A DNA stretch of 64,000 nucleotides from Heptranchias perlo (GCF_035084215.1 NC_090354.1:24552001-24616000), one strand, 5' to 3'; shown: positions 10,860 through 63,663, counted from the first letter of the stretch. A program made the numbers and translations. Notes: generated by a model from the sequence alone, not told the origin.

Positions 10860-13800
10860 TCAGTTTCTTCTTCTGATTTGTGCCGTTATGAAAAGGATCT
10901 GTTGTAAACGGGCCCTGGTCTCGGCGCGGATTATTTCCCAGGCGCAGTCACTGAATCTCTGAAAAAGAGAAATATTCAGGAAAATACATTAGAGAATGAA
11001 CAGATTTAAATTGGGTGAAATGAACTATCTGTCAGTAATCAAACAGTCAAATATCAATTGTCCCACCTTCTGTTTGAGAAACTTTCTCAGTTTCCTGAAG
11101 TATTTGTGAATGGTGGCGTTTCTCCTCGGCCTGGACTCTGAGCCCGGTTTCTTGACACATTCCTCCAGCTCTTCGAGCTGCCGATCCAGGAGAAGCCGGA
11201 AGTTTTCCACCTTGTCCTGGGGCCATGTGACTGAGCCCAGGTTCATGCTGTAGATCTTGATGAAGTGGCGCAGTGTCTGATGGACAATCTGGATCCTGTC
11301 CTGGGTCTGAGCAAAATATACACAACGACATTAGAGGGGACCTGTTCCTGTTTAGATTTAGAGTAGTTATGGAAGATGACAAGGAACAATGAAACGTGAA
11401 AATACTCAACTGCAGGAGGGCTAATTTCAGTGAGTTGAAAGGGGATCTGGCCCAAGTGGATTGGATTCAAAGACTGGCAGGTAAAACAGTAAATGATTGA
11501 TGGGGGCCTTCAAAGAGGAGATAGTTTGGGTACAGACTAGACACATACCCATGAGGGGGAAAGGAAAGGCATCCAAAGCCAGAGGTCCCTGGATGACTAA
11601 AGATATAGAGATAACAATTAAACAGAAAAAGGAGGCTTATTATAAATGCCAGGCTCATAATAAAGTGGAGAACCAAGCTAAATACAGAGTGCAGGGGAGG
11701 ACTGAAAACGGAAAAATAAAGGGGGCAAAGAGAACAAATGGGAACAGATTAACCGGTAAGATAAAAGTGAACCCAAAAGTCTTTCATAAGCATATAAATA
11801 GTAAAAGGGTAGTTAAAAGGAATGGTGGGACTGATTAGGGACCAAAAAGGAGATCTTGTGGAGGTAGAGGGCATGGCTGATGTACTAAATGAGTTCTTTG
11901 CATCTTTCTTCACAAAAGAAGAGGATGCTGCCAATATCAAAGTTAAGGAGGAAGAAGTAGCAAAATTGGATAGGATAAAAATAGATTAGAGGAGGTACTT
12001 AAAAGGTTAACAGCTTTTAAAGTAGAAAAGTCACCCGGTCTAGATGGGATGCATCCTAGTTTGCTGAGGGAAGTAAGGGTGGAGATAATGGAGGCTCAGA
12101 CCACAATCTTCCAATCCTCCTTTGACATGGGAGCAATGCCAGAGGACTGGAGGATTGAAAATGTTACACCCCTGTTCAAAAAAGGGGACAGGGATAAAGA
12201 TAGTGTTGGGGAAACTTTTGGAGACAATAAGCTGAGACAAAATTAATTGTCACTTGGAAAAAAATGGGTTAATAAATGACAGGCAGCATGGATTTATTAA
12301 AGGCAAACCTTGATGAATTCTTTGATGAAGTAAGAGAGAGTTGATAAAGGTCGAGCGGTTGATGTTGTGTATATGGACTTTAAAAAGGCATTTGATAAAG
12401 TAGCACATAGTCCACTTGTTAACAAAACTGAAGCTCATGGGATTAAGGGGGTAGTTGCAACGTGGATGCAGAATTCACTAAGGTACAGAAAGAAGAGAGC
12501 AGTGATGAATGATTGTTCTTCAGACTGAATGGAAGATTATAGCATTAGGACCACTGCTCTCTTTGAAATATCATGGACTTGCGTATATAGTGCATAATTT
12601 CAAAGTGTACAGATGACACGAAATTTAGAATTGTAGTAAACAGTGAGGAGGATAGGAACAGACTTCAGGAGGTAGTAGACAGACTGGTGAAATGGGCAGA
12701 CACATAGCAGATGAAATTTTACACAGAAAAATGTGAAATGATGCAGTTTGGTAGGAAGAATGTGGAGGGCCGATATAAACTAAATGGTACAATTTTGAAG
12801 TGCAGTGGGAACAGAGAGGCATGGGGGTGTATGTACTCAAATCTTTGAAGGAGGTAGGACAAGTTAAGAAGGCTGTTAAAAAAGCTTACAGGATCCTTGG
12901 CTTTAAAAACAGATGCATAGAGTACAAAAGCAAGGACAATGAGCTATACCTTTATGAATCATTGTTTCAGCCCCAGCTGTAATATTGTGTCCAATTCTGG
13001 GCAGCACATTTCAGGAAGGATGCCAAGACTTTAGAGATGGTACAATAGAGATTTACTAGAATGGTACCAGGGATGCGGGACTTCAGGTATGTGGAACGAC
13101 TAGGAAACGGGAATTGTTCTCTTTGAGCAGAGACGGTTAAGGGGAGATTTAATAGAGGCGTTGAAAGGATTTTGATAGAGTAAATAAGGAGAAACTGTTT
13201 CAAGTGGCAGATGGGTCGGTAACTAAAGGACACAGATTAAAGGCAATTGGCAAATGAACCAGAGGCGAGAGGGTAAGAACTTTTTTAAACAGCGAGTTGT
13301 TATGATCTGGAATGCACTGCCTGAAAGGATGGTGGAAGCTGATTCAATAACTTTCAAAAGGGAATTGGATCAATTGAGGCGGTGCATTTTTCAGGGCTAT
13401 GGGGAAAGGGCAGGAGAGTGGGACTAATTGGATTGCTCTTCAAAAACCTGACACAGGCACGATGGGCAAAATGGCCTCCTTCTGTGCTGGATCATTCTAT
13501 AATTCTATGATTTAACCTGCTGGAGATGATGCATACCATAGAGCCAATCATCACAGCTCAGGAGTGAGATGGTTACAGGGAGTGAGATGAATACAGGGAG
13601 TCAGATAGTTAAAGGACATGGAGTGAGATGTCTAGAGGGTGTGAGATAGTTAGAGGAAGTGAGATAGGGGGAGTGAGATAGAGTGTGTGAGTAAGATAGT
13701 TAGAGGGAATGAGATAGGTAGATAGAGTAAGATAGTTAGAGAGAGTGAGCAAGAGAGAGTGAAATATCGCAAGTGAATATTTCTGCCATTTTCACATCAA

Positions 13801-14305
13801 TGGGCGGCCAACACTGGATTTAAATTTCCTGATTAAAGTTCTGATAAGTTTGGTGATCTTACTCATAGTTTCCATAAACCGCCTTTTTGAATAAAATAAT
13901 ATCCAGTGTTCACTCACCTGTAACCCCTTCGAAAGTTTCATCAGGTTCAAAGACTTGGTTTTCAGCGAGAGCCTCTCTTCAACACACACTCGGGGAAAGG
14001 GACCGCCCTGAAACAGAAAATCATCACCGTTACAGACAGCCTAGAGAGAAATACAGGAGAATCAGTGGCTTTTAATTGAATCAAGTTACAAAACCCCAAA
14101 CTATTTCTCCTGATATAACTTTTCACAACAGACCCTGTGTGGTTCGGATCCGGCTCTGGGTGATGGTTAAACTCACCATTTCATTCAGTTTGCTGAGAGT
14201 CTCTGTGTTGAGAACTTGCTGTAACTGCAGCCTCTCACAGCCCAGACTCAGGGTCCCGGACAAGACCCACACAATCCAAAATCTCCAAACACTCGCCAAA
14301 TCCAT
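10860..14305 (-). CDS. IFN: Type I interferon gene B, 185 aa: exon 1b 14305-14177, exon 2 14007-13918, exon 3 11306-11067, exon 4 10958-10860
   Basis: All GT-AG phase-0 junctions, open frame. Signal peptide MDLASVWRFWIVWVLSGTLSLG|CERL (cf. IFN-alpha SLG|CDLP); Cys at mature positions 1, 29, 101, 136; CAWEIIRAE motif. Confidence 0.93.
11345..13511 (+). mobile_element. Degenerate CR1 ORF2 plus 3' tail filling intron 2 of gene B (antisense to the gene)
   Basis: WGAFKEE/HPSLLREV/PEDWRI-type peptides; ATTCTATG tail near 13495-13511. Confidence 0.85.
13560..13765. repeat. GA-rich degenerate tandem repeat (GAGTGAGATAG-like) in intron 2; counterparts at about 28020-28180, 38200-38570 and 60670-60990
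   Basis: Repeated gagtgagat/agatagttagag units. Confidence 0.65.
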
Positions 14306-14799: not shown

Positions 14800-15430
14800 C
14801 CCTTTACCCCATCACATTCCCCCTCTACCGTCAGTATCCGATTTCCAGCTCCCTCAGTTTCTGATCCCCTCCTCAATATCAGGGTGTCCCTCTCCTCAGG
14901 CCCTGAATCCCATCCCTTCTGTATCTGATTCTTCCTCCCTCCACGAGTTCTTATCTCCCCCTTCCCTCCGATTCTGATTTCCCCTCAGGTCCTCATTTCC
15001 CTCTTCCCATAGTGTCTGATTCCGCATCCCCTCAATATCTGATTCCCGCACTTTCCTGAGTTTATGATTTCCCCAATCCTCAGTGTCCTGTTTCCATTCC
15101 CTCAAATCTTTTTCCCCTCCACTCAGGTCCCAAGGTCCCATTTTCACTCCGTCTCAGTATATAATCTATTCCCCTAGAGCGCGATTCTCTTCCCCTCAAT
15201 ATAAGTTTAACCCTCTCGTCAGTGTTTCAGTTCCCTTCTCCACTCAGTGTCTGATTATAATTCCCCCTCAAATCTGATTCCCCCCTTGGCTCAGAGTTTG
15301 ATCCCAATTCGCGCCAGGGTCCGATTCCCTCTCTCCCCTCAGATTCTGATCACTTTCTCAGTCAGCGTCTGATGTCCCCCCTCCTCTATCTGTTTCTCCT
15401 TGTCCCCTCAGTGTCCAATTCCCCACTTTC
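14800..15430. repeat. Pyrimidine-rich TCTGATTCCC/CCTCAG degenerate minisatellite between exons 1a and 1b (also about 28800-29660, 39570-39830, 45067-45458, 46161-46560, 57900-58298, 59009-59660)
   Basis: Many ctgattcccc-like units; G-rich on the IFN sense strand in every copy. Confidence 0.75.
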
Positions 15431-15671
15431 ACCATGGGTCCAATTAGACCTCTTGGTTTCAGGAGGCTTTTGCTGTTGGACACGATCAGGGAGTGAGAGC
15501 AAGTGTAACAGAAGAGAGTGACTCTAACAATTAAAACGACCAAATGAATACTGCCCAACCAGTGAGTATTAATTGGATAAGAAACATACAACTCCATGCT
15601 ATGTCTCCTGATTTGACTTTTCACAACAAACAGACGGTTCGGATCCGGCTCTGGATGCTGTTTAAACTCAC

Positions 15672-15803
15672 CATTTCATTCAGTTTCCTCAGAGTCTCTC
15701 TGTTGAGAACTTGCTGTAACTGCAGCCTCTCACAGCCCAGACTCAGGGTCCCGGAAAACAAAACCCACACAATCCAAAATCTCCAAACACTCGCCAAATC
15801 CAT
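15672..15803 (-). CDS. IFN: Distal alternative first exon (1a) of IFN gene B, 44 codons; in-frame upstream ATG at 15818
   Basis: MDLASVWRFWIVWVLFSGTLSLGCERLQLQQVLNRETLRKLNEM|gtgagt; no private exon 2 before exon 1b. Confidence 0.75.
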
Positions 15804-24998: not shown

Positions 24999-27900
24999 TC
25001 AGTTTCTTCTTCTGATTTGTGCCGTTATGAAAAGGATCTGTTGTAAACGGGCCCTGGTCTCGGCGCGGATTATTTCCCAGGCGCAGTCACTGAATCTCTG
25101 AAAAAGAGAAATATTCAGGAAAATACATTAGAGAATGAACAGATTTAAATTGGGTGAAATGAACTATCTGTCAGTAATCAAACAGTCAAATATCAATTGT
25201 CCCACCTTCTGTTTGAGAAACTTTTCCAGTTTCCTGAAGTATTTGTGAATGGCGGCGTTTCTCCTGGGCCTGGACTCTGAGCCCGGTTTCTTGACACATT
25301 CCTCCAGCTCTTCGAGCTGCCGATCCAGGAGAAGCCGGAAGTTTTCCACCTTGTCCTGGGGCCATGTGACTGAGTCCAGGTTCATGCTGTAGATCTTGAT
25401 GAAGTGGCGCAGTGTCTGATGGACAATCTGGATCCTGTCCTGGGTCTGAGCAAAATACACACAAGGACATTAGAGGGGGTCTGTTCCTATTTAACCGGCC
25501 TGATATTGGGCAAACCTAACAGCCCATCACCGCAGCTCAGCTATTTCCCATTTTAATGATGGTGTAAATGTGTAAAGTGTCTGAATTTAAAACCACAGCC
25601 GAGAGATGTTTTTTCTTTTTTTTAAATTTAAGCTACGGCACATGGATTGATGTTGGCAATATTACTGGGTTAATACATAACTGGTTCCTACCACATTCCG
25701 CTGTGGGCTAATTTAACCCCTTTATTTTAGCAGACTAATTCCTTCTGTCAAATAGACAGAAGAATGTCAAACCATTTAGACCGGTTATGGACAAGGACAA
25801 GGAACAATGAAACGTGAAAACACACAACTGCAGGAGAACTAATTTCAGTGAGTTGAAAGGGGATCTGGCCCAGGTGGATTGGATTCAAAGATTGGCAGGT
25901 GAAACAGTAAATGATCAATCGGGGCCTTCAAAGAGGAGATAGTTTGGATACAGACTCGACACATTCCCATTTGGGGGAAAGGAAGGGCATCCAAAGCTAG
26001 AGGTCCCTGGATGGCTAAAGATATAGAGATAAAACTTAAACAAAAAAAGGAGGCTTATTATAACTACCAGTATGATAATAAAGTGGAGAACCAAGCTGAA
26101 TACAGAGTACAGGGGAGGACTGAAAAAGGAAAAAAAGGGGGCAAAGAGAGTATATTGGAACAGATTAATGGGTAACATAAAAGTCTTTCATAAGCAAATA
26201 AATAGTAAAAGGGTAGTTAATAGAATGGTGGAACTGATCAGGGACCAAAAAAGGAGATCTTGTGGTGGCAGAGGGAATGGCTGATGGACTGAACGAGTAC
26301 TTTGCATCTTTCTTCAAAAAAGAAGGGGATGCTGCCAATATCAAAGTAAAGGAGGAAGGAGTAGAGAAATTGGATAGGATAAAAATAGATTAAAAGGAGG
26401 TACTTAAAAGATAAGCAGCTTTTAAAATAGAGAAGTCACCCGGTCCAGATGGGATGCATTCTAGGTTGCTGAGGGAAGTAATGGTGGAGATAACGGAGGC
26501 TCCAGCCACAATCTTCCAATCCTCCTTAGATATGGGAGCAATGCCAGAGGACTGGAGGATTGCAAATGTTACAAAAAAGGGGGAGAGGGATAAACCCGGC
26601 AACAACAGGCCAGTCAGCCTAACGATGGTGATGGGGCAACTTTTAGAGACAATAAAATTAGACAAAATTAATTGTCACTTGGAAAAAAATGGGTTAATAA
26701 ATGACAGGCAGCATGGATTTATTAAAGGCAAATCGTGTTTAAGTAACCTGATTGAGTTCTTTGATGAAGTAAGAGAGAGTTGATGAAGGTCGTGTCGTTG
26801 ATGTTGTGTATATGGACTTTAAAAAGGCATTTGATAAAGTATCACATAGTCAACTTGTTAACAAAACTGAAGCTCATGGGATTAAGGGGGTAGTTGCAGC
26901 ATGAATGTAAAATTGGCTAAGGTACAGAAAGAAGAGAGCAGTGGTGAACGGTTGTTTTTCCGACTGGATGGAAGTGTAAAGTGGTGTTCCCCAGGAGTCA
27001 GTGTTAGGACCGCTGCTCTTATTGATATATTTTAATGTCCTGGACTTGCGTATATAGTGCACAATTTCAAAGTGTACAGATGACATGAAACTCAAAACTG
27101 TAGGAAACAGTGAGGAGGATAGTAACAGACTTCAGGACAACATAGACAAACTGGTGAAATGGGCAGACACATGGCAGATGAAATTTAACACAGAGAAGTG
27201 TGAAGTGATGCAGTTTGGTAGGATGATTGAGGAGAGGCAATATAAATTAAATGGTACAATTTTGAAGGGGGACGGGAACAGAGAGGCCTGGGGGTGTACA
27301 TACTCAAATCTTTGAGATGGCAGGACAAGTTGAGAAGACTGTTAAAAAAGTTTAAAGGATCCTTAGCTTTAAAAACAGATGCTTAGAGTACAAAAGCAAG
27401 GACAATGTGCTTTACCTTTATAAATCAATGTTTCAGCCCCAGCTGTAATATTGTGTCCAATTCTGGGCACCACTCTTTAGGAAGGATGCCAAAACCTTAG
27501 AGATGGTGCAGCAGAGATTGACTAGAATGGTACCAGGGATGAAGGACTTCAGGTATGTAGAGGATCGGGAGTTGTTCTCTTGAGCAGAGATGGTTAAGGG
27601 AAGTTTTAATAGAGGTGTTGAAAGGGTTTTGATAGAGTAAATAAGGAGAAACTGTTTCCAGTGGCAGATGGGTCAGTAACTAAAGGGCACAGATTAAAGG
27701 CAATTGGCAAATGAACCAGATGCGAGATGATAAGAAATGTTTTTATGCAGCGAGTTGTTATGATCTGGAATGCACTGCCTGAAAGGGTGGTGGAAGCAGA
27801 TTCAATGATAGCTTTCAAAAGGGAACTGTATCAATTGAAGGGGCATTTTTTTCAGGGCTGTGGGGAATGGGCAGGAGAGTGGGACTAATTGGATTGCTCT

Positions 27901-30017
27901 TTCAAAGACCTGACACAGGCACGATGGGCAAAATGGCCTCCTTCTGTGCTGGATCATTCTATGAATCTATGATTTAACCTGCCCGTGATGATGCATACCA
28001 CATAGCCAATCATCGCAGTTCAGGAGTGAGATGATAAGACGGAGTGAGATGAATACAGGGAGTCAGATAGTTAAAGGAAATTGAATTATTAGGAGTGAGA
28101 TGGTTGGATGGATTGAGGAGGTTTGAGGGTGTGAGAAAATTAGAGGGAGTGAGATAGAGAGAGTGAGCTGGAGCGAGTGAATATTTCTGCCATTTTCACA
28201 TCAATGGGCGGCCAACACGGGGTTTGAATTTCCTGATTAAAGTTCTGATGAGATTGTTGATCTTACTCATAGTTTCCATCAAACTCTTGCTTGAATAATA
28301 TAAAATAATATCCAGTGTTCGCTCACCTGTAACCCCCCTGAAAGTTTCACCAGGTTCAAGGACTTGGTTTTCAGCGAGAGCCTCTCTTTAACACACTGAC
28401 GGGGAAAGGCACCGCCCTGAAACAGAAGATCATCACCGTCACAGACAGCCCAGAGAGAGAAATACAGGAGAAACAGTGACTTTTAATTGAATAAAGTTAT
28501 AAAACGCCAAACTATTTCTCCTGATATGAGTTTTTACAACAAACCGGCCTTATGTGTTTCGAATCCGGCTCTGGGTGTTGTTTAAACACATCATTTCATT
28601 CAGTTTCTTGAGATTCTGTGTGTTTCGAACTTGCGGTAACTGCAGCCTCTCGCAGACCAGACTCAAGGTCCAGGACAAGACCCACACAATGCAACATCTC
28701 CAAATACTCGCCAAAACCATGCTCAAACGACCCAGGGTAAAGAGCCGATCTGAAGGATCAGAAACTGAGCGACCGCCGGAGCTGCCGAGTCCTGTGGGTG
28801 TCCCCCTCTCCCCTCAGTGTCTCTTCTGTTCTCCGCCGCCCCCCCCCCCCCCCCGCCGAGTCTGATTCACCCTCCCGCAATATAATTACCCCTCTCAGTG
28901 TTTCATTTCCTTTCTACCCTCGGGGTCTGATTGCTCCCTTCCCTCAACATCAGATTCTCCCTTTCCAGACAATATTGGATTCCCTCTACCCTCAGTCTCT
29001 GATTCCCCCCTGTATATCAGGATGTCCCCCCCCCCCACCACCAGGGCCTGATTTCCCCTCTCCTCTGTATCTGATTCTCCCACTCTCCACTTGGTCTCAT
29101 CTCCACCATCCCTCCGTTTCTGTTTCCCACTCAAACCATCATTCCCCTCTTCCCTTAATATCTGATTCCCCTCAATCTCGATTTCTCCCACCCCTCAATA
29201 TCTGATTCCCTCTCTTTCCTCAATTCATGACTCCCCCTCTCCTTAGATCTGATTCCCTCCTTAATATCAGGGTACCCCACTCCTCACTGTTCGGTTTTCG
29301 TTCTCTCCTCAGATCTGATTCCCTCCTTCACTTAGAATCTGATTCAACTCCCCCAGGGTCTGATTCAATCTCCCCCCTCAATATAAGATTACCCCCCCCC
29401 CCCTTCAGTCTTTCATTTCCTTTCTCCACTCCATATCTTATCTGTTCTACCTGTAGAATCTGACTCAACCTCCCCTCAATATAAGATTACCCACCTCATC
29501 AGTTTTTCAGTTCCCTTCTCCCCTCATGGTCTGATTCCACGTCTTCCATCAGGATCACGTTCCCTCTCCACTCAGCCCCTGATTCCCATCTCTTCTTTAC
29601 CCGATTCTCCCTGTCGCCTCAAGGTCTAATTCCTCTGTTCCAACCAGGGGTCTAATTACCCCTCCAGGTTTCAGGGACCTTTTGCTGTAGGACACTATCA
29701 ATGAGTGTACCGAGTGTAACAGTAGAGTCACTCTAACCATAAAGACGTCAAATTCATACTGAAGACTCGGTTGATATTAATTGGACAAAGTTACAAAACC
29801 CCAAACTATTTCACGTGATATGATTTTTCATAACAAACAGATCCTGTGTAGTTCGGTTCCGACTTTTGATGCTGTTTAAACTCACCATTTCATTCAGTTT
29901 CCTCAGAGTCTCTCTGTTGAGAACTTGCTGTAACTGCAGCCTCTCACAGCCCAGACTCAGGGTCCCGGAAAACAAAACCCACACAATCCAAAATCTCCAA
30001 ACACTCGCCAAATCCAT
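24999..30017 (-). CDS. IFN: Type I interferon gene C, 186 aa if exon 1a is used: exon 1a 30017-29886, exon 2 28416-28327, exon 3 25445-25206, exon 4 25097-24999
   Basis: Exons 2-4 are open with canonical splice sites (exon 2 GGAFPRQCVKERLSLKTKSLNLVKLSGGLQ); only the distal exon 1a retains a GT donor at the normal position. Confidence 0.85.
25775..27973 (+). mobile_element. Degenerate CR1 in intron 2 of gene C
   Basis: Homologous to 11345-13511; HSRLLREV, QHGFIKGKSCLSNLIEFFDEV. Confidence 0.85.
28592..28720 (-). pseudogene. Disabled proximal exon 1b of gene C
   Basis: MVLASIWRCCIVWVLSWTLSLVCERLQLPQVRNTQNLKKLNEM followed by ATGTGT instead of GTGAGT; 5' UTR deletion at about 28770; promoter missing beyond 28801. 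Confidence 0.8.
29886..30017 (-). CDS. IFN: Distal first exon (1a) of IFN gene C
   Basis: MDLASVWRFWIVWVLFSGTLSLGCERLQLQQVLNRETLRKLNEM|gtgagt. Confidence 0.8.
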
Positions 30018-30032
30018 ATTCAACTGACCCAT

Positions 30033-31450
30033 GGGTAAAACGCCGATTTGAAAGATGAGAAACTGAGCGGATCGCGGTTCAGCTCCGAAAACGGTTCTGA
30101 ATGAAACTCTGGAAGTCGAAATGTCGCCGCTTGTGATCCCGGAGCGGTTGCCTGAGCTGCCGAGTCCTGTGGGTGTGCGGCTGGATACTGCTGGGAGCTC
30201 TCACTGCCATGCTGTCGGCTTTAAGAGGGGAGACTGGGAATGTTTGGATTACATTCGAAAAGTGAAATCTGGCCGCAGGAGAGCAATAATTTGTGCGGTT
30301 CCTTTCTGAGGTAAGGAATCTAAAAGCTGGAGATTCGTGAACCAGCGACTGGAAATTCCCCCATCGAAGATCACAACCAGCGCTCGGTCCCAGCTCAATG
30401 TTGTCTGGATTCGAATCAAGGGGGCACTGAAGTGGTGTCGGGGGCAGAGTCTGTATTGGGGGAGTGCGGACATGTATTGGGGGCTGTATTTTATAATCCG
30501 GGTTATAGTGACACCGACAGCGGTGATCCCGGTGCCGCGGCTTTTAGTGCTGACATTCGGCTCCATGGAGAGCGATTCCCTTTTAAATCCACTCTCTCCC
30601 CGGTGTGCTCACATCGTGCTTTTACTGTTCACACTTCGCGGGCTGGACATTGCAGAGAGCCCGGCTCACAGTGCAGGGTCACGGTCTGATGCTGTCTGTC
30701 CGATTCCCCTGTCGGAGATTCTGCTCTTTAAGTAGAAAAAGTTCCTCATTTCTCGGTTGTTTTTTGGAGGTTTCTTGAGATTTTCTTCTCCAAGAATATT
30801 TAATCTGCTCGGACTCTGAATCAGAAGGAAGAACCGACTCCTTTTCTTTCATCGTTTCTTTCTTTTCTCTCTCCCGGGAAAGTGTCCGTGTCAGTTTGTC
30901 TGTGAAAATGAGCCTTGTGTCAATTTCACCGAAAGCGAAAGTGCCTCAGGGAAAGTGACGAGTCTCGTCATTTCCGAAATTGAGGAGTGTTTGTAAACAG
31001 AACGGATCACCCTGAGAGCGAGTGAGGGGGATCTGGGAAAAGGTTTGGGATATCCGGGATACCCCGGTTACTGGGGGAACATCACAAAATCACTCTCAGC
31101 TGTAACTACAAACAAAAACTTCTCCATGAGTGAATCTGGGACCGAATCTCACCAGCACCACCTGTGGACAGCGGCAGTGAGTGATTTGGGCTTGAATTAA
31201 ACAATCACATGACAGCAACTTAAAGAGATACTGTTTTGGTGAAAGCCTTTCCATCAAGTCGTTTAGTTTTTGATTGACCTCCCAAGGCTGGGGATCAGTG
31301 GTTATAGGGAGAGCTAAGATTAAAACTGAAATTTTAAAATTGCGAATAATATTAGGCTAATGTTGTAATAATTATTAAAAGTTCCGAAGGGAGGCGAAAA
31401 GGGGATCAGGAAGTTTAAAAGGGAGTCTGAAAAGCACTGGTGGGCAATAT
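30033..31450 (-). promoter_or_regulatory. Distal promoter block of gene C
   Basis: IRF-E 30257-30267; perfect consensus kB GGGAATTTCC (- strand) 30351-30360; ISRE-like 30931-30942. Confidence 0.7.
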
Positions 31451-35571: not shown

Positions 35572-38500
35572 TCACTTCCTTCTTCTGATTTGTGCCGTTA
35601 TGAAAAGGATCTGTTGTAAACTGGCCCTCGTCTCGGCGCGGATTATTTCCCAGGCGCAGACACTGAATCTCTGAAAAAGAGAAATATTCAGGGAAATACA
35701 TTAGAGAATGAACAGATTTAAATTGGGTGAAATGAACTAACTGTCAGTAATCAAGGAGTCAAATATCAATTGTCCCACCTTCTGTTTGAGAAATGTTTCC
35801 AGATTCCTGAAGTATCTGTGAATGGCGGCGTTTCTCCTCGGCCTGGACTCTGAGCCTGGTTTCTTGACACATTCTTCCAGCTCTTCGAGCTGCCGATCCA
35901 GGAGAAGCCAGAAGTTTTCCACCTTGTCCTGGGGCCATGTGACTGAGTCCAGGTTCATGCTGTAGATCTGGCTGATGTGATGCAGTGTTTGATGGACAAT
36001 CTGGATCCTGTCCTGGGTCTGAGCAAAATACACACAATGACATTAGAGGAGGCCTGAATCCATTTAGGGTTAGAGTAGATATGGAAAAGGACAAGGAACA
36101 GTCAAATGTGAAAATACTCAACTGGAGGAGGACTAATTTCACTGAGTTGAAAGGGGATCAGACCCAGGTGGATTGGATTCACAGATAGGCAGGTAAAACA
36201 GTAAATGAACAATGGGGGCCTTCAAAGAGGAGAAGATTTAGGTACAGACCAGACACATTCCCATGAGGGGGAAAGGAAGGGCATCAGTCAAGAACCAAGC
36301 TGAATACAAAAAATACAGAGGAGAACTGAAAAAGGAAATAAGAGGGGCAAAGATATTGTATGAGAATAGATTAGCAGTTCACATAAAAGGGAACACAAAT
36401 GTCTTTTATAAGCATATAAATAGTAAAAGGTTAGTCAAAGGATAGGTGTGACTGATTAGGGGCCTTCTTGTGGAGGCAGAGGGCATGGCTGATGGACTAA
36501 ATGACCACTTTGCATCTGTCTTCACTAAAGAAGAGGATGCTGCCAATGTTACAGTAAAGGAGGATGTAGTAGAAAAATTGGATAGGATAAAAATAGATAA
36601 AGAGGAGGCACTTAAAATGTTGGCATTGCTCAAAGTAGAAAATTCACCCATGCCGGATTGAATGCATCCCAGGTTGCTGAGGGATGTAATGGATGGAGAT
36701 AATGGAAGCTCCAGCCAGAATCTTCCAATCTTCCTTACATGTGGGAGGGGTGCCAGAGGACTGGAGGATTGCAAATGTTACACCCTCGTCAAAAAAAGGG
36801 GCGAGGCATAAACCAGGGAACTACAGGCCAGTCAGTCTAATGTTGGAGGTGGGGAAATGCTTCAAGACAATGATCAGAGACAAAATGAATTGTTACTTGG
36901 AAAAATATTGGTTAATAAATGACAGCCAACATGGATTTCAATGGAGAGAGTTAATGAAGGTGGTATGGTTAATGTCGTGTCTATGGGCTTTTAAAAGGCA
37001 TTTAATAAAATACCACATAATAGACTTGTTAGCAAAATTGAAGCCCATGGAATTAAAGGGGCAGTGGTGGCATTAATACAAAATTGGCTATGTGACAGAA
37101 AGCAGAGAGCAGCGTTGAGCGGTTGTTTTTCAGACTGGATGGAAGTGTGCAATAGTGTCCCTCAGGGGTCAGTATTAAGACCACTGCTCTATTTGATATC
37201 TATTAATGACCTGGATTTGGGTATACAGGGCATAATTTCAAAGTTTGCAGATGACGTGAAAATAGGAAATGTGGTAAAGAGTGAGGTGGATAGTAACAGA
37301 CTTAGGACATAGACAGACTGGTGAAATGAGCAAACACATGGCAGACAAAATTTAACACAAAGAAGTGTGAAGTGATGCATTTTGGTAGGAAGAATGAGGA
37401 TAGACAATATAAACTAAATGGTACCATTTTAGAGTGGGTGCAGGAACAGAGAATCCCAGGGTTGTGCATTCACAAATCTTTGAAGGTGGCAGGACAAGTT
37501 GAAATGGCTGTTTCAAAAGTATACAGGCTCCTTGGCTTTATGAACAGAGGCAAAGAGTACAAAAGCAAGGATAATGTGCTATATCTTTATTAATCACTGG
37601 TTAGGCCCCAGCTGTAATATTGTATCCAATTCTGTGCACCAATCTTTAGGAAAGATGCAAAGATCTTAAGAGAGGATGCAGAAAAGAGTTACCAGAATGG
37701 TACAAGGAATGAGGGACTCCAGTTACATGGAGAGATTAGAAAAGCTGGGATTGTTCTTACAGCGGAGAAGGTTAAGGGGAGATTTAATAGGGGTGTTCAA
37801 AATCATGAAGGGTTTTGATAAATTGTTTCCAGTGGCAGGAGGGTCAGTAATCAGGGACACAGATTTAAGGTAATTGGCAAAAGAACCAGAGGCGAGATGA
37901 GGAGAATTTTTTTTACACAGCGAGTTGTAATGATCTGGTATACACTGCCTGAAAGGGTGATGGAAGCAGATTCAATAATAACTTTCAAAAGGGAATTGGA
38001 TAAATACTTGAAGGGGAAAAATTTACCTGGCTATGGGGAAAGGGCAGAGGGGTGGGACTAATTGGATAGCTCTTTCAAAGAGCCAGCACTGCACGATGGG
38101 CTAAATGGCCTCCTTCTGTGCTGGACCATTCTCGGATTCCATGAATTGACCTCTCCAGGATGGGGCAAGCCTCACAGCCAATCACCGCAGCTCAAGAGTG
38201 AGCTGGTTAGAGGGAGTGAGATGATTTCAGGGAGTCAGATAAAGGGCGTGAAACGATTCGAAGGAGTGAGATGTGTAAGAGGAAGTGAAATTGAGGGAAA
38301 CAGATGGTGACAGGCTGCATGATGATTAGAGGGGTTTAGATAGTTAGAAGGATTGAGATGGTTAGAGGGTGTGCGATAGTTAGAGTGTTATAGATAGAGT
38401 GAGTAAGTTAGAAGGAGTGTGATAGAGAGAGTGAGAGAGAGAGAGATAGTGCCTGAGATAGTGTGAGTGAGATAGAGAAAATTAGATTGGATGGTTATGA

Positions 38501-39099
38501 TAGAGTGAGTGAGATAGTGAGCGTGAGATAGAGGGACTGAGAAAGTGAGAGTGCGATAGAGCGAGTGAATAGTTCTGCCATTTTCACATCAATGGGCGGC
38601 CAATACTGGATTTAAATTTCCTGATTAAAGTTCTGATCAGATTGTTCATATTTCTTATACTTTCTATAAAACTCCTGTTTGAATAAAATAAAATCCAGTG
38701 TTCACTCACCTGTAACCCCTTCGAAAGTTTCATCAGGTTCAAGGGCTTGGTTTTCAGCGAGAGCCTCTCTTCAACACACACTCGGGGAAAGGGACCGCCC
38801 TGAAACAGAAGATCATCACCGTTACAGACAGCCCAGAGAGAGAAATACAGGAGAATCAGTGTCTATTAATTGAATAAAGTTACAAAATCCCAAACTATTT
38901 CTCCTGATACAACTTTTCACAACAGACCTTGTGGGGTTCGGATCCGGCTCTGGATGATGGTTAAACTCACCATTTCATTCAGTTTGCTCAGAGTCTCTAT
39001 GTTGAGAACTTGCTGTAACTGCAGCCTCTCACAGCCCAGACTCAGGGTCCCGGACAAGACCCACACAATCCAAAATCTCCAAACACTCGCCAAATCCAT
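35572..39099 (-). CDS. IFN: Type I interferon gene D, 185 aa: exon 1b 39099-38971, exon 2 38799-38710, exon 3 36018-35779, exon 4 35670-35572
   Basis: Open frame, GT-AG phase-0 introns, 4 Cys, ends RFSVCAWEIIRAETRASLQQILFITAQIRRRK*. Confidence 0.92.
36063..38145 (+). mobile_element. Degenerate CR1 in intron 2 of gene D
   Basis: NDHFASVFTKEE, PGNYRPVSL, SKFADDVK peptides; very similar to 61083-63183. Confidence 0.85.
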
Positions 39100-39405: not shown

Positions 39406-40067
39406 GATGGAAGATCACAACCAGCGCCTCGTTCCAGCTCAATGTTCCATCGATTTGTACCAATATTTTCAACATGGATTTTGGAAAACGCTATTGTTTC
39501 CTCAGAATTGTAAGAATTCGCATCACGGGGGCACTAAAGGGGCAGTTGTTTCGATTGATGGACTGTCTCCATTTCCCCTTTCCCCCAGACATCACATTCC
39601 CCCTCCACCGTCAGTATCCGATTTCCAGCTCCCTCAGTTTCTGATTCCACTTCTTCACTTCAGTTTATCATTCCCCCTCTTCTCAGTACCTGGTTCCCAT
39701 TCTCCCCTCAGATCTGATTTGTCCCTCCACTCAGAGTCTGATTCCATCTCCTCCTAGGGTCTGATTCCCTCTCTCCCCTCAGTATCTCCTCTGGTCTCCC
39801 CTCAGAGTCACCCTCCCCTCAAGATAATTATCATAAGAACATAAGAACATAAGAAATTGGAGCAGGAGTAGGCCAATCGGCCCCTCGAGCCTGCTCCGCC
39901 ATTCAATAAGATCATGGCTGATCTGATCCCAACCACAAATCTAAAGAACACAAGAAGTCGGAGCAGGACCCGGCCACATAGCCCCTGGGCCCTCTCCGCC
40001 ACCCACAGGGCATTGACCGATCCGAACTCAGCTTCATGTCCAATTTCCTGCCCGCTCCCCATAACCC

Positions 40068-42887
40068 CTAATTCCCTTTACTTCTAGGAAACTCTATTTC
40101 TGTTTTAAATTTATCGAATGATGTAGCTTCCACAGCTTCCTGGGGCAGCAAATTCCACAGACCTACCACCCTCTGAGTGAAGAAGTTTCTCCTCATCTCA
40201 GTTTTGAAAGAGCAGCCCCTTATTCTAAGATTATGCCCCCTAGTTCTAGTTTCACCCATCTTTGGGAACATCCTTACTGCATCCACCCGATCAAGACCCT
40301 TCACAATCTTATATGTTTCAATAAGATCGCCTCTCATTCTTCTGAACTCCAATGAGTAGAGTCCCAATCTACTCAACCTCTCCTCATATGTCCGCCCCCT
40401 CATCCCCGGGATTAACCGAGTGAACCTTCTTTGTACTGCCTCGAGAGCAAGTATGTCTTTTCTTAAGTATGGAGACCAAAACTGTATGCAGTATTCCAGG
40501 TGCGGTCTCACCAATACCTTATATAACTGCAGCAATACCTCCTTGTTTTTATATTCTATCCCCCTAGCAATAAAAGCCAACATTCCGTTGGCTTTCTTGA
40601 TCACCTGCTGCACCTGCATACCAACTTTTTGATTTTCTTGCACTAGGACCCCCAGATCCCTTTGTACTGCAGTACTTTCCAGTCTCTCGCCATTAAGAAA
40701 ATAACTTGCTCTCTGATTTTTCCTGCCAAAGTGCATAACCTCACATTTTCCAATATTATATTGCATCTGCCAAATCTCCGCCCACTCACCCAGCCTGTCT
40801 ATATCCCCTTGCAGGTTTTTTATGTCCTCCTCACTCTCTACTTTCCCTCCCATCTTTGTATCATCTGCAAATTTTGATATGTTGCACTCGGTCCCCTCCT
40901 CCAAATCGTTAATATAGATTGTAAAGAGTTGGGGACCCAGCACCGACCCCTGTGGAACACCACTGGTTACTGGTTGCCAGTCCGAAAATGAACCATTTAT
41001 CCCAACTCTCTGCTTCCTGTTCGATAACCAATCCTCCACCCATGCCAGAATATTACCCCCAATCCCGTGATTTTTTATCTTAAGTAATAATCTTTTATGT
41101 GGCACCTTGTCGAATGCCTTCTGGAAGTCTAAATACACTATGTCCACTGGTTCCCCTTTATCCACCCTATACGTTATATCCTCGAAGAACTCAAGCAAAT
41201 TTGTCAGACATGACTTCCCCTTCATAAAGCCATGCTGACTTTGTCCTATTAAATTATGCTTATCTAAATGTTCCGTTACTGTCTCCTTAATAATAGACTC
41301 CAAAATTTTACCCACCACAGATGTCAGGCTAACTGGCCTATAATTTCCAGCCTTCTGCCTACTACCCTTTTTAAATAACGGTGTTACATTAGCAGTTTTC
41401 CAATCTGCCGGGACCTCTCCTGAGTCCAGGGAATTTTGGAAAACTATCACCAAAGCATCCACAATCCCTACTGCCACTTCCCTCAAGACCCTAGGATGGA
41501 AGCCATCAGGTCCAGGGGATTTATCCGCCTTGAGTCCCATTATTTTACTGAGTACCATCTCCTGAGTGATTTTAATCGTATTTAGCTCCTCCCCCCCGAG
41601 AGTCCCCTGTTTGTCCAGTGTTGGGATATTCTTAGTGTCCTCTACTGTAAAGACTGAAACAAAATATTTGTTCAGCATTTTTGCCATCTCCATGTTTCCC
41701 ACCATTAATTTCCCGGTCTCATCCTCTAAGGGACCTATGTTTGCCTTAGCCACCCTTTTTCTTTTTATATAACTATAGAAACTCTTGCTATCTGTTTTTA
41801 TATTTTTTGCTAATTTCTTTTCATAATCTAACTTCCCTTTCTTAATCAATCCTTTAGTTACTTTTTGCTGTCTTTTGAAGAATTCCCAATCTTCTATCCT
41901 CCCACTAAGTTTGGCTACCTTATATGTCCTTGTTTTTAGTCGGATACTATCCTTGATTTCTTTACTTAGCCACGGATGGCTGTCATTTCTTTTACACCCT
42001 TTTTTCCTCAGTGGAATATATTTATTTTGAAAGTTGTAAAATAACTCCCTAAATGAACACCACTGCTCATGTACCGTCTTACCCTTTAATCTATTTTCCC
42101 AGTCCACTTTAATCAATTCCGCTCTCATACCATCATAGTCTCCTTTATTCAAGCTCAGTACGCTTGTTTGAGAATCAACCTTCTCACCCTCTAATTGGAT
42201 ATGGAATTCAACCATGTTGTGGTCGCTCGTTCCAAGGGGATCCTTAACTAGGACATTATTAATTAATCCTGACTCATTACACAGGACCAGGTCCAAGGTT
42301 GCCTGCCCCCTTGTAGGATCAGTTACATACTGCTCAAGAAATCCATCCCTGATGCACTCAATGAACTCGTCCTCAAGGCTGCTCTGCCCAATTTGATTTG
42401 TCCAGTTAATATGATAATTAAAATCCCCCATAATTATGGCTGTTCCCTTATTACATGCCCCGACTATCTCCTGATTAATACTTCTTCCAGCAGAGTTGCA
42501 ACTATTAGGAGGCCTATATACTACGCCCACTAATGTTTTTTTTCCCTTATTATTCCTTATCTCCACCCAAACTGTTTCATTATCTTGATGCTTTGTCCCA
42601 ATATCATTTCTCTGTATTACAGTGATTCCTTCCTTTATTAACATAGCCACCCCACCTCCCCTTCCTTCCTGCCTGTCCTTCCTGATTGTTAAATACCCTG
42701 GCATATTTAATTCCCAGTCGTTGTCACCCTGCAGCCATGTTTCTGTAATGGCCACAAGATCATACCCATACGTAGTTATTTGTGCCGTTAACTCGTCCAT
42801 TTTATTACGAATGCTACGTGCATTCAGATAAAGAACTTTCAAATCTGTTTTGTGACGCTTAGTTCCTGCTTTTTCCTTTTTTAACAC
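40068..42887 (-). CDS. CR1 ORF2: APE endonuclease plus reverse transcriptase (939 aa; apparent small frameshift in the last ~10 codons)
   Basis: YLNARSI, ITETWL, GDFN, SDHN (APE); YRPVSLTS, DFQKAFDKV, GVPQGSVLGP, FADD (RT). Confidence 0.93.
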   Translation of the reverse strand: MLKKEKAGTKRHKTDLKVLYLNARSIRNKMDELTAQITTYGYDLVAITETWLQGDNDWELNMPGYLTIRKDRQEGRGGGVAMLIKEGITVIQRNDIGTKHQDNETVWVEIRNNKGKKTLVGVVYRPPNSCNSAGRSINQEIVGACNKGTAIIMGDFNYHINWTNQIGQSSLEDEFIECIRDGFLEQYVTDPTRGQATLDLVLCNESGLINNVLVKDPLGTSDHNMVEFHIQLEGEKVDSQTSVLSLNKGDYDGMRAELIKVDWENRLKGKTVHEQWCSFRELFYNFQNKYIPLRKKGCKRNDSHPWLSKEIKDSIRLKTRTYKVAKLSGRIEDWEFFKRQQKVTKGLIKKGKLDYEKKLAKNIKTDSKSFYSYIKRKRVAKANIGPLEDETGKLMVGNMEMAKMLNKYFVSVFTVEDTKNIPTLDKQGTLGGEELNTIKITQEMVLSKIMGLKADKSPGPDGFHPRVLREVAVGIVDALVIVFQNSLDSGEVPADWKTANVTPLFKKGSRQKAGNYRPVSLTSVVGKILESIIKETVTEHLDKHNLIGQSQHGFMKGKSCLTNLLEFFEDITYRVDKGEPVDIVYLDFQKAFDKVPHKRLLLKIKNHGIGGNILAWVEDWLSNRKQRVGINGSFSDWQPVTSGVPQGSVLGPQLFTIYINDLEEGTECNISKFADDTKMGGKVESEEDIKNLQGDIDRLGEWAEIWQMQYNIGKCEVMHFGRKNQRASYFLNGERLESTAVQRDLGVLVQENQKVGMQVQQVIKKANGMLAFIARGIEYKNKEVLLQLYKVLVRPHLEYCIQFWSPYLRKDILALEAVQRRFTRLIPGMRGRTYEERLSRLGLYSLEFRRMRGDLIETYKIVKGLDRVDAVRMFPKMGETRTRGHNLRIRGCSFKTEMRRNFFTQRVVGLWNLLPQEAVEATSFDKFKTEIEFPRSKGN

Positions 42888-42970
42888 TTTACCTATTACT
42901 CCATACCTTCTGTCCCTTCCTGTTACGCTTTCCTCTCTCTCCCTGCTCAGGTTCCCAACCCCCTGCCACT

Positions 42971-43921
42971 TTAGTTTAAACCCTCCCCAACAGCACTAGC
43001 AAACACTCCTCCTAGGACAGCGGTCCCGGCCCTGCCCAGGTGCAGACCATCCGGTTTGTACTGGTCCCACCTCCCCCAGAACCGTTTCCAGTGTCCCAGG
43101 AATTTGAATCCCTCCCCCTTGCACCATTCCTCTAGCCACGTATTCATTTGAAATATCCTCCTATTTCTACTCTGACTAGCACGTGGCACTGGCAGCAATC
43201 CTGAGATTACTACCTTTGAGGTCCTATTTTTTAATTTACCTCCTAACTCCCTATATTCTGCTTTTAGGACCTCATCCCCTTTTTTACCTATATCGTTGGT
43301 GCCTATGTGCACCACGACAGCTGGCTGTTCGCCCTCCCCCTCCAAAATGTTCTGTAGCCGCTCCGAGACATCCTTGATCCTTGCACCAGGGAGGCAACAC
43401 ACCATCCTGGAGTCTCGGTTGCGGCCGCAGAAACGCCTGTCTATTCCCCTTACAATTGAGTCCCCTATCACTATAGCTCTGCCACTCTTTTTCCTCCCAG
43501 CCTGTGCAGCAGAGCTACCCGTGGTGCCAGGAAGTTGGCTGCTGCTGCCTTCCCCTGATAAGTCATCCCCCCCAACAGCATCCAAAGTGGCATATCTGTT
43601 TGAGAGGGGGATGGCCACAGGGGACCCCTGCACTACCTGCCTGCATCTCTTACTCTTCCTGGTGGTCACCCATTCACTTCCTGCCTGTATACCCTTTACC
43701 TGCGGTGTGACCAACTCGCTAAACGTGCTATCCACGAGTTTCTCTGCATCGCGGATGCTCCACAGTGAGTCCACCCGCAGCTCCAGCTCCGAGATACGAT
43801 CGGTCAGTAGCTGCAGGTGGACACACTTCCCGCACACATGGTCGGCAGGGACACTGGTAGTGTCCATGACTTCCCACATCTTGCAGGAGGAGCATATCAC
43901 GGGTGCGAGGTCTGCTGCCAT
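42971..43921 (-). CDS. CR1 ORF1: zinc finger/leucine zipper plus SGNH esterase domain (316 aa)
   Basis: CSSC...CGKC, heptad Leu, IVIGDS, HIGTND, DGLHL motifs. Confidence 0.9.
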   Translation of the reverse strand: MAADLAPVICSSCKMWEVMDTTSVPADHVCGKCVHLQLLTDRISELELRVDSLWSIRDAEKLVDSTFSELVTPQVKGIQAGSEWVTTRKSKRCRQVVQGSPVAIPLSNRYATLDAVGGDDLSGEGSSSQLPGTTGSSAAQAGRKKSGRAIVIGDSIVRGIDRRFCGRNRDSRMVCCLPGARIKDVSERLQNILEGEGEQPAVVVHIGTNDIGKKGDEVLKAEYRELGGKLKNRTSKVVISGLLPVPRASQSRNRRIFQMNTWLEEWCKGEGFKFLGHWKRFWGRWDQYKPDGLHLGRAGTAVLGGVFASAVGEGLN

Positions 43922-44212
43922 GACTTGCCTTAGCTTAGTTACCCCTTTTAAATTACGTTGAAATTAGAAAATGTTAACTATACTAGGGACCTAGGTTCAC
44001 TAAAAAAAAACAAAAAAAAAAACACTATCTGCTATAAAACCTGCAGATCTTCCCTTTCTTATTACTTTACTTACAGTAAAATGGTAGAAATACTCACCTG
44101 AACCTACTCACCAATCAGCTGCCTCCCCTGTGCCGCGTCACTTTCTGACTGGTGACGGCACCCCGAACTCTGCCGCTGGTCTCAGAGTCTCGGTCTCAGA
44201 GTAAGCTCTGGT

Positions 44213-44411
44213 CTCGCTCTCTCCGCGCTGTTTATATCCCCGCTCTGGTCTCGCTCTCTCCCGCCGCTCACCGACTGGACTCTCGCTCTCTCCGCGCTGT
44301 TTATATCTCCGCTCTGGTCTCGCTCTTTACCGCCGCTCACCGACTGGACTCTCGCTCTCTCCGCGCTGTTTTTATCCCCGCTCTGGTCTCGCTCTCTCCC
44401 GCCGCTCACCG
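44213..44411. repeat. 69-bp tandem repeat, about 3 copies, in the CR1 5' UTR
   Basis: Units start at 44213, 44282 and 44351 (ctcgctctctccgcgctgttt...). Confidence 0.9.
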
Positions 44412-44480
44412 CTCTCAGGTCCACTACCGCTCTGCAGGAAAAGCAAGGCAAAGCAGCACCTCCTTCCCCCACTTTACCAA

Positions 44481-45069
44481 ACTCCCACACGTACCGAACT
44501 CTCAGCACACTGTGTTGTCCTCACACCGTGCTGTCCGCACTGACAGGCCCCTGTATTTCTACAGTTGAGACTCAGATGAGTCAGGCCTGCCCCACCTTCA
44601 GGTACCAATTGAATCTAGCTAACCAATTAACTTGCTACAGCAGCTCTCTGCTGAAGCCAGACAGAAACTTAGAAATTTAAACTTTTAAATTGACCTTAAA
44701 CAGTTGAAGCAATATGCACTAGATTTAAAGAGATTAACCCTTAAAGAGATTAACCCTTCAACTCCCACACGTACCGAACTCTCAGCACACTATGTTGTCC
44801 TCACACCGTGCTGTCCGCACTGACAGGCCCCTGTATTTCTACAGTTGAGACTCAGATGAGTCAGGCCTGCCCCACCTTCAGGTACCAATTGAATCGAGCT
44901 AACCAATTAACTTGCTACAGCAGCTCTCTGCTGAAGCCAGACAGAAACTTAGAAATTGACCTTAAACAGTTGAAGCAATATGCACTAGATTTAAAGAGAT
45001 TAACCCTTAAAGAGATTAACCCTTCAACTCCCACACGTACCGAACTCTCAGCACACTATGTTGTCCTCA
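44481..45069. repeat. 266-280 bp tandem monomers (2 full + 1 partial) at the CR1 5' end
   Basis: actcccacacgtaccgaact starts at 44481, 44761 and 45027; the units differ mainly by a 14-bp indel. Confidence 0.9.
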
Positions 45070-46807: not shown

Positions 46808-46939
46808 CATTTCATTCAGTTTCCTCAGAGTCTCTCTGTTGAGAACTTGCTGTAACTGCAGCCTCTCACAGCCCAGACTCAGGGTCCAGGGAAACAAGAC
46901 CAAAACAATCCAAAATCTCCAAACACTCGCCAAATCCAT
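46808..46939 (-). CDS. IFN: Distal alternative first exon (1a) of IFN gene D
   Basis: MDLASVWRFWIVLVLFPWTLSLGCERLQLQQVLNRETLRKLNEM|gtgagt. Confidence 0.72.
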
Positions 46940-57519: not shown

Positions 57520-57651
57520 ATGGATTTGGCGAGTGTTTGGAGATTTTGGATTGTGTGGGTCTTGTTTTCCGGGACCCTGAGTCTGGGCTGTGAGAGGCTG
57601 CAGTTACAGCAAGTTCTCAACAGAGAGACTCTGAGGAAACTGAATGAAATG
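57520..57651 (+). CDS. IFN: Distal alternative first exon (1a) of IFN gene E
   Basis: MDLASVWRFWIVWVLFSGTLSLGCERLQLQQVLNRETLRKLNEM|gtgagt; upstream in-frame ATG at 57505. Confidence 0.72.
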
Positions 57652-63100: not shown

Positions 63101-63663
63101 TCAGTGAAATTAGTCCTCCTCCAGTTGAGTATTTTCACGTTTGATTGTTCCTTGTCCTTTTCCATATCTACTCTAATCCTAAATGGATTCAGGCCTCCTC
63201 TAATGTCATTGTGTGTATTTTGCTCAGACCCAGGACAGGATCCAGATTGTCCATCAAACACTGCATCACATCAACCAGATCTACAGTATGAACCTGGACT
63301 CAGTCACATGGCCCCAGGACAAGGTGGAAAACTTTCAGCTTCTCTTGGATCGGCAGCTCGAAGAGCTAGAGGAATGTGTCAAGAAACCGGTCTCAGAGTC
63401 CAGGCCGAGGAGAAACGATTCTATTCACAACTACTTCAGGAATCTGGAAACATTTCTCAAACAGAAGGTGGGACAATTGACTGTGTGATTATTGACAGTT
63501 CATTTCACCCAATTTAAATCTGTTCATTCTCTAATGTATTTCCCTGAATATTTCTCTTTTTTAGAGATTCAGTGTCTGCGCCTGGGAAATAATCCGCGCC
63601 GAGACCAGGGCCCGTTTACAACAGATCCTTTTCATAATGGCACAAATCAGAAGAAGGAAGTGA
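60138..63663 (+). CDS. IFN: Type I interferon gene E, 185 aa: exon 1b 60138-60266, exon 2 60436-60525, exon 3 63228-63467, exon 4 63565-63663
   Basis: Open frame, GT-AG phase-0 introns, MALASVW... signal peptide, 4 Cys, RFSVCAWEIIRAETRARLQQILFIMAQIRRRK*. Confidence 0.93.
61083..63183 (-). mobile_element. Degenerate CR1 in intron 2 of gene E
   Basis: 173-aa RT remnant at 62024-62545; tail at about 61083. Confidence 0.85.

Follow-up and report, generated by a model that had tools for sequence, protein, structure and literature searches.

When a gene carries two promoters, each with its own first exon, and has been copied many times in tandem, the copies might divide the two promoters among themselves or might all be losing the same one. 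This question is raised by a stretch of 64,000 nucleotides (nt) of Heptranchias perlo DNA (hereinafter the window), which is part of a tandem array of type I interferon (IFN) genes; a flank of 200 kb was added, so that 264 kb were examined. Eleven genes of the array (A-K) share a design with two promoter/first-exon modules, the upstream one with exon 1a and the other with exon 1b, followed by exons 2-4. An earlier note on this DNA described lesions in one or the other module of several paralogs and proposed that the two modules decay reciprocally. We consider it likely that the promoter and first exon were duplicated, that exon 1a, which is spliced, is kept uniform by gene conversion while exon 1b is being lost, and that in gene D a splice donor inside a CR1 long interspersed element (LINE) joins exon 2 and starts a transcript for a protein of 120 amino acids (aa) without the signal peptide and helix A.

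Splicing of exon 1a and loss of exon 1b

The direct evidence on exon 1a comes from contigs of a k=31 assembly of four runs from one sample, which were aligned to gene B at 80% likeness and gave 14 records; the RNA nature of the data was inferred from the spliced joins, and transcription starts, strand and level are not readable from such contigs. In two of the four runs (X1 and X2), contigs join the 1a donor to the exon 2 acceptor (joint 14006-15671, GT..AG ends), skipping 1664 bases that include exon 1b. Exon 1a is thus functional, with exon 2 as its splice partner. The junction between exons 2 and 3 is found in the contigs as well. The joined form of exons 1a and 2 is absent from the genome, and exon 3 as a query against the genome matched 13 sites, all of them inside the array, so that no retrocopy was found and this source of the joins was rejected. 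By difference counts, the exon 2 sides of the joined contigs belong to the lineage of gene C: X1 record 1 resembles F apart from one additional change, X2 record 3 resembles G, and X2 record 4, with 0 and 6 differences from gene B, fits gene C exactly. Among the other records, X3 record 11 (246 nt) matches exon 1a of gene B with 0 differences, and X2 record 6 carries the base of gene K. Contig depths (2-11) were not used for ranking genes; none of the aligned contigs lies on exon 1b and none of the four from X3 carries the 1a coding variant of gene D, uncovered parts not being counted as evidence. Unspliced contigs, which may include DNA traces, span the proximal "promoter" of gene B up to the interferon-stimulated response element (ISRE; 15932-16417 and 16493-16721), and accordingly transcription may start further upstream than the earlier reader assumed.

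Gene C, which had been proposed as a natural knock-out of exon 1b suggesting that 1a is functional, holds up in this role: one joined contig fits it, its RefSeq model uses exon 1a, and the combination of a dead exon 1b with open exons 2-4 recurs in five copies. The lesions reported in this gene are all present, namely the donor changed to ATGTGT, the partial loss of the 5' untranslated region (UTR; an 83-bp deletion near 28772), the missing promoter (~0.5 kb absent at ~28800) and heavy substitution, with 87-88% identity to the intact first exons that are themselves 96-98% alike; alignment columns upstream of the deletion are non-homologous and were ignored. The exon 2 peptide GGAFPRQCVKE is, as stated, confined to gene C among the 11 exon 2 copies. 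A cryptic donor restoring the frame of exon 1b, raised in the earlier note as a way around the lost site, was not found: by a simple count of consensus letters, without a trained model, 10 GT sites match the donor consensus at 5 or more of 9 positions, but the in-frame sites before the stop reach only 5, and such a donor was rejected as unlikely.

The dead exon has drifted. Between exons 1b of genes C and B, nonsynonymous differences per site (pN, 12/102) equal synonymous ones (pS, 3/27), whereas exons 1b of B and K differ by one nonsynonymous change in 102 sites (Fisher p=0.003 against the 12 of gene C). For exons 2-4, the check for selection suggested in the note gave pN/pS of 0.28-0.42 between gene C and genes F-I, with open frames, and 0.21-0.77 between C and the other genes. 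Because 17 of 17 derived changes in exon 1b are common to C and the four copies F, G, H and I, which lie outside the window, the loss in these five genes is one old event; the five dead exons are 99.7% alike. The pattern of shared changes points to an exon 1b that died once in this lineage and drifted, with the gene then amplified fivefold.

The upstream module has a different history. From ~1.4 kb upstream to the donor, the 1a cassette of gene C is mostly 94-100% identical to those of B, D, E, F, J and K (dropping to 86-88% at the indels of gene E), whereas over the 300 bases past the donor its identity to B, D, E, J and K is only 67-82%, and adjacent spacers are only 66-68% alike across lineages. 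Trees of the spacers and introns recover three lineages (C-F-G-H-I, D-E-J and A-B-K), a split that the cassette does not follow. The contrast between the cassette and the adjacent spacers points to gene conversion, by which the cassette has likely been homogenized, and a clear tract of 18 sites of the 1a type within the exon 1b module of gene D indicates that conversion does occur in the array. The cassette includes a distal cluster of ISRE- and kB-like motifs (30931-30959), overlooked in the earlier reading, which together with the TATAAAA word has no counterpart upstream of exon 1b; the motifs are named after consensus sequences, and we treat the matches as putative sites. The "perfect" kB site attributed to the 1a promoter of gene C is indeed present (GGGAATTTCC, 30351-30360), but is a one-base variant private to this gene, with GGGATTTTCC in its four sisters; as compensation for the loss of 1b it was rejected, given that genes F-I lack it. 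Behind each exon 1a lies a decayed stretch resembling exon 2, which suggests that the 1a module arose when part of a gene was duplicated long ago.

A CR1 element in gene D

The spacer between exons 1a and 1b of gene D, i.e., its first intron, contains a full-length CR1 LINE in the sense of the gene, which the earlier reading overlooked. Its ORF1 encodes an esterase (PF13472, 51.2 bits, cut-off 32.9), ORF2 contains the endonuclease (PF03372) and reverse transcriptase (RT; PF00078) domains, and the 3' end consists of three copies of an 8-mer (39832-39855); 8-bp microsatellite tails of this kind are a feature of CR1 elements. The corresponding site is empty in genes E and J. One contig of 496 nt (X3 record 9) combines exactly the two exon 2 bases of gene D and a D-type start of exon 3 with a 5' end of 29 nt that matches 44126-44098 and stops at the LINE donor CAG/GTGAGT, so that the exon encoding the signal peptide is skipped. 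The 29-nt piece would be the overlap that a k=31 assembly is expected to leave where a splice branch occurs. Another contig (X3 record 10) comes from the gene D intron just upstream of exon 1b and fits transcription reading through from upstream.

The donor appears to belong to the element family. The 27-mer up to the donor has 985 exact copies in the genome; among 16 sampled copies, which are 90-99% identical to the copy in gene D, the donor continues as GTGAGTA in all 16 and an acceptor-like site follows 84-100 nt past it, before ORF1, in 15. Retention of both sites across copies suggests that the family carries its own intron in the 5' UTR, a predicted feature that in gene D would have been diverted by the capture of the donor by exon 2. 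The 5' UTR of the element (44205-45070) contains two kinds of tandem unit, one of 69 bp with TATA-like words and one of 310 bp with donor-like GTACGT sites, and unit number varies between copies. Elsewhere in the spacers of D, E and J there is a dispersed 0.7-kb repeat with TG...CA ends (45481-46152 and 58307-58986 of the window, and in gene J), possibly a solo LTR (long terminal repeat), which is 96% alike among these three genes and 81-90% identical to copies elsewhere; its presence in E and J led us to reject it as a D-specific promoter.

No ATG occurs in the LINE exon, and the first AUG of the joined transcript lies at base 67 of exon 2, in frame and in a weak context, and opens a frame of 120 aa that runs to the native stop; the RefSeq protein of gene D, XP_067825354.1, has 120 aa and starts at the same methionine. 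This frame begins at residue 67 of 186 and therefore lacks the leader, helix 27-44 (helix A), Cys24 and Cys52, the two cysteines being, as we assume from mammalian IFN-alpha, one partner of each expected disulfide. Its structural model (pLDDT, the predicted local confidence, of 72.8; predicted template modeling score, pTM, of 0.59) is poorer than that of the gene C protein (pLDDT 82.6). With helix A and both N-terminal cysteines missing, the product is probably inactive, and most likely the isoform is a by-product at the expense of the gene, not a functional cytokine.

Since the contig begins at the splice branch, it would look the same whether the LINE supplies the start of the transcript or an internal exon bearing a stop. 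We lean slightly toward the former. The CR1 copy is full length with its own 5' end, TATA-like repeats lie just upstream of the donor, and RefSeq models gene D without exon 1a. The internal alternative, in which exon 1a of gene D is spliced to an acceptor at 44432, then through the LINE exon to exon 2, would make the LINE exon a poison exon; in phase 0 this exon runs into a stop after 19 codons, and the message would be degraded. A strong acceptor (a pyrimidine tract followed by CAG) precedes the LINE exon, and exon 1a and its promoter are intact in gene D; stop-bearing messages of this kind are, however, targets of decay, which counts against this alternative. On balance, we regard the poison exon as a real but unlikely alternative to a start within the LINE. 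A far bolder extension of that start, namely that a young CR1 equipped an interferon gene with a standing promoter of its own and took away the secretion signal, yielding an intracellular or antagonist interferon that arose independently of the intracellular interferons (iIFN) of teleosts, with the ~985 donor-bearing copies rewiring many shark first exons in the same manner, seems improbable.

The two modules across the array

All the lesions listed in the earlier note are real, but the paralog-by-paralog reciprocity drawn from them looks weak, as the decay runs mostly in one direction. Of 10 genes with exon 1a, 9 keep its coding part intact, whereas a frame, a donor and a TTAAA box are found together in exon 1b of only three of the 11 genes (B, E and the pseudogene K). 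Exon 1b was broken in the C lineage (C, F, G, H and I, all with 1a intact), in J (1a intact, a 2-nt deletion causing a frameshift in 1b), in A and in D; exon 1a was lost in A and frameshifted in pseudogene K, and its promoter is altered in E. The same 22-bp deletion removing the TTAAA box is present in the 1b modules of A and D (in D at 39300/39301, where the loss of a TATA-like box had been noted), and gene B keeps both modules, as described. In gene E, where 1b is intact, the kB and distal IRF-E (interferon regulatory factor element) changes were found as reported (GGGATCTTCC at 57167-57176 and ATGTGAAA at 57281-57288), and these are two of five promoter/UTR lesions that also comprise a 21-bp insertion, a 14-bp distal deletion falling in the distal IRF/kB cluster and a 12-bp UTR deletion. 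Gene D stands outside any partition because in its observed spliced form exon 2 is preceded directly by neither of the two first exons. A and E are the only genes that point toward 1b, and partition in that direction is possible only in them.

A reciprocal scheme would have C, F-I and J driven by 1a, and A, E and perhaps B driven by 1b with a different inducibility. Besides the genes that appear to lean on 1b, to which we return below, such a scheme could draw on the small differences among the 1b coding parts of B, D, E and K. Yet the 1b of gene A lacks its TTAAA box, K is a pseudogene, a single event accounts for five of the 1b losses, similarity among 1b coding sequences can also be maintained by conversion from 1a (as the tract in D 1b illustrates), and the 1a sequence of gene B is found in RNA contigs. 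We thus find reciprocal partition doubtful and favor one-way loss of 1b.

Several observations weigh against one-way loss and the associated claims. Gene A lacks exon 1a although the 1a-1b spacer is kept, and must use 1b if it is expressed; gene E combines the five lesions in 1a with an intact 1b; the RefSeq models of A, B and E use 1b; and in the six 1b copies outside the C lineage, the coding parts are 97.9% alike compared to 93.5% for the intron. Strong purifying selection could add to the identity of the 1a cassette. All the RNA evidence consists of contigs from a single sample, without 5' ends, and X2 record 4, assigned to gene C by difference counts, could possibly represent gene I with one allelic change. 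For gene D, XP_067825354.1 may rest on the same reads, and the LINE junction is known from one contig in one run. This last point, with the mere 29 nt on the LINE side and the abundance of exact copies of the donor region, would also fit a rare mis-splice or a library chimera of abundant LINE RNA with no bearing on gene D, a reading we deem quite improbable because the partner exon is uniquely that of D, the only gene in the 264 kb with this donor upstream in cis, the join falls at exact GT and AG sites, and RefSeq carries the predicted 120-aa product.

Several other features of these genes were observed. In gene A, the place of exon 1a and its promoter, ~1.0-2.4 kb upstream of exon 1b (L018), is taken by unrelated sequence that by eye resembles a DNA-transposon remnant. 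The exon 2 donor of gene J is GTGACT instead of GTGAGT, and its exon 3 contains compensating indels that alter a few residues (L007-L008). Pseudogene K has, in addition to the frameshift in 1a, a stop and a deletion in exon 3 and a deletion in exon 4 (L008-L009); one RNA contig carries its 1a base, and its 1b promoter is partly 1a-like.

The assignment of the array to type I interferons rests on several lines of evidence. Annotated "interferon alpha-21-like" proteins of Heptranchias perlo are 94-100% identical over exon 3, and the Pfam Interferon family (PF00143, cut-off 26.8) matches exon 3 of gene C with 49.8 bits and the protein of gene A with 98 bits. The predicted structure of the gene C protein has the type I helical fold, with carp IFNa and zebrafish IFN1 as the best fold matches (template modeling score, TM, 0.73-0.76). 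Cysteines C24, C52, C124 and C159 are kept in at least 90% of 29 aligned rows, in agreement with the ancestral four-cysteine pattern, and a putative signal peptide (hydrophobic residues 3-22) lies N-terminal to the start of the alignment with mature interferon chains. The four exons, separated by phase-0 introns, contain 132 (1a) or 129 (1b), 90, 240 and 99 coding nt. The positions of the features in the window are listed in Table 1.

Table 1. Features of the interferon genes and of the CR1 element in the window
Feature	Position	Strand	Remarks
Gene B exons 2 (13918-14007), 3 (11067-11306), 4 (10860-10958)	10860..14007	-	
Gene B exon 1b, coding part	14177..14305	-	Intact; included in RefSeq model P0036
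Gene B exon 1a, coding part	15672..15803	-	Match of 246-nt RNA contig
Gene C exon 4	24999..25097	-	Open frame
Gene C exon 3	25206..25445	-	Pfam Interferon
Gene C exon 2	28327..28416	-	Open frame
Gene C dead exon 1b	28586..28800	-	Frame 28720-28592; donor ATGTGT 28591-28586; UTR deletion; promoter deleted
Decayed exon 2 copy behind gene C exon 1a	29640..29730	-	No acceptor; from alignment, limits approximate, homology by eye
Gene C exon 1a, coding part	29886..30017	-	44 codons: signal peptide, Cys24, helix A; donor GTGAGT 29885-29880; RNA joint; RefSeq model P0035
1a promoter/exon cassette, gene C	29886..31285	-	Likely homogenized across ten genes
Putative proximal sites of cassette	TTAAA box 30220-30227; IRF-E 30260-30267; kB 30351-30360; TATAAAA within 30489-30498	-	
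Putative distal ISRE-like sites of cassette	30931-30942; 30949-30959	-	GAAAGCGAAAGT; GGGAAAGTGAC
Gene D exons 2 (38710-38799), 3 (35779-36018), 4 (35572-35670)	35572..38799	-	First AUG 38733
Gene D exon 1b	38971..39099	-	Open frame and donor; TTAAA box deleted; 5' UTR with 18-site conversion tract of 1a type
CR1 LINE in gene D	39832..45066	-	5.2 kb; repeated 5' UTR, ORF1, ORF2, (TTCTTATG)n tail
CR1 ORF2, endonuclease/RT	42995-40068	-	
CR1 ORF1, esterase	43963-42971	-	
CR1 5'-UTR exon and donor	44092..44431	-	Donor CAG/GTGAGT (44097-44092); exon 44431-44098 if acceptor 44432 is used; joined to gene D exon 2
Gene D exon 1a, coding part	46808..46939	-	Intact; exon 2 lies 8 kb away
Gene E exon 1a, coding part	57520..57651	+	Intact
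Gene E exon 1b, coding part	60138..60266	+	Intact; first exon of RefSeq model P0057
Gene E exons 2 (60436-60525), 3 (63228-63467), 4 (63565-63663)	60436..63663	+	

Beyond the genes with two modules, the array includes L and M, chimeras whose divergent exons 1-2, with their own compact promoter, are fused to exons 3-4 showing 98% identity to those of gene C, the junction lying in intron 2 (~169900-172150 on the plus strand and ~180350-182600 on the minus strand of the extended window; L011-L013), and three further, distant genes, N, O and P. Genes N and O (~188000-189100 and ~207100-208200 of the extended window; L013 and L015) have an apparent non-coding first exon and a 5'-UTR intron that ends in TTTCAG ~30 nt 5' of the ATG; at the same position, the 1b modules have AG, and the 1a modules and the converted 1b of gene D have AA. 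Intron 2 of the module genes (26087-28069, 36291-38241, 60988-62947 and intron 2 of B) contains an old CR1-like fragment that is 77-84% alike between lineages and provides a neutral yardstick for age. Automated models of skate and catshark interferons (P0027, P0040, P0024 and P0056) likewise start with leaderless alternative first exons.

Proposed history and comparison with known systems

We propose the following scenario, in which the order of events is inferred. An old partial duplication would have left a promoter, an exon 1 and a decaying exon 2 upstream of an intact gene. The upstream module, located beside the sole ISRE cluster, might then have become the main first exon. Exon 1b would have died a single time in the C lineage, before the expansion of that lineage to five copies, and would have been hit separately in J by the frameshift and in A and D by the deletion of the TTAAA box. 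Lastly, a young CR1 would have entered the spacer of gene D, where its own 5'-UTR donor captures exon 2.

Under this scenario, the array illustrates three routes by which the control region changes while the cytokine is kept: duplication of the first exon, the copying of one promoter cassette between diverged lineages and LINE capture. This is of interest given that the ancestral type I interferons contain introns. The paralogs serve as natural controls for one another (C-type genes have lost 1b and gene A has lost 1a, the 1a promoter of E carries lesions, and the LINE is present in D but not in E or J), so that the contributions of the LINE and of the IRF/kB sites, both proximal and distal, lend themselves to direct testing. 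From the CR1 donor family, many further chimeric transcripts and wrongly annotated N-termini are to be expected in sharks. In the literature, represented by main texts and including few subscription journals, we found no report of shark interferon promoter structure, duplicated interferon first exons or CR1-interferon chimeras.

Variable first-exon cassettes are known from the protocadherin, UGT1A and Dscam genes, where tandem units of a promoter and a first exon are spliced to common 3' exons, and the shark array is alike in this respect. In contrast to those systems, there are only two near-identical units per gene, one of which is being lost, and the whole gene is arrayed too.

In comparison with other type I interferons of cartilaginous fish, which have four exons and three introns (PMC5332411) and evolve by lineage-specific birth and death (PMC6640115), the array has the same four exons, four cysteines, Pfam Interferon domain, type I fold and tandem arrangement, and its exon 3 is 59-84% identical to the interferons of other sharks and rays. 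The two promoter/exon 1 modules per gene, the homogenized 1a cassette and the LINE-derived exon do not appear in the available text of these accounts. The available description of canonical CR1 elements (PMC13343379) features an esterase in ORF1, an endonuclease and RT in ORF2 and repeated units near the 5' end, all of which are found in the element of gene D; elements of the CR1 group make up 22-34% of elasmobranch genomes (PMC13343379). The conserved 5'-UTR donor and acceptor, with the predicted intron, set the present family apart from that description, which in its available part is silent on splicing and promoter.

A close interferon parallel is found in the two-promoter IFNa/IFNphi1 genes of teleosts, in which, according to the available text, an upstream start skips the signal peptide and produces a leaderless message from an intron-containing gene (PMC5127012, PMC3828176). 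The shark genes differ in that both 1a and 1b encode a signal peptide, the skip in gene D coming from a young LINE in one paralog. In trout, iIFN1a and iIFN1b (longer by 7 and 31 aa) retain the complete mature peptide and are described as active (PMC3828176), whereas the frame of gene D, which likewise has no signal peptide, loses part of the mature peptide. Outside the interferon ligands, first exons derived from transposable elements in dACE2/MIRb-ACE2 and LTR-IL33, and the exonization of such an element in IFNAR2-S, are alike in that an intronic retroelement provides a start or a splice site and the N-terminus is lost, as far as the available portions of these reports go (PMC13709765, PMC10515820). 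What distinguishes gene D is that the target is an interferon ligand, the element a CR1 with a sense 5'-UTR donor and the host a shark. Among these cases, dACE2, a truncation started by a transposable element, is described as non-functional (PMC13709765), and by its resemblance to dACE2 the isoform of gene D would be expected to lack function as well.

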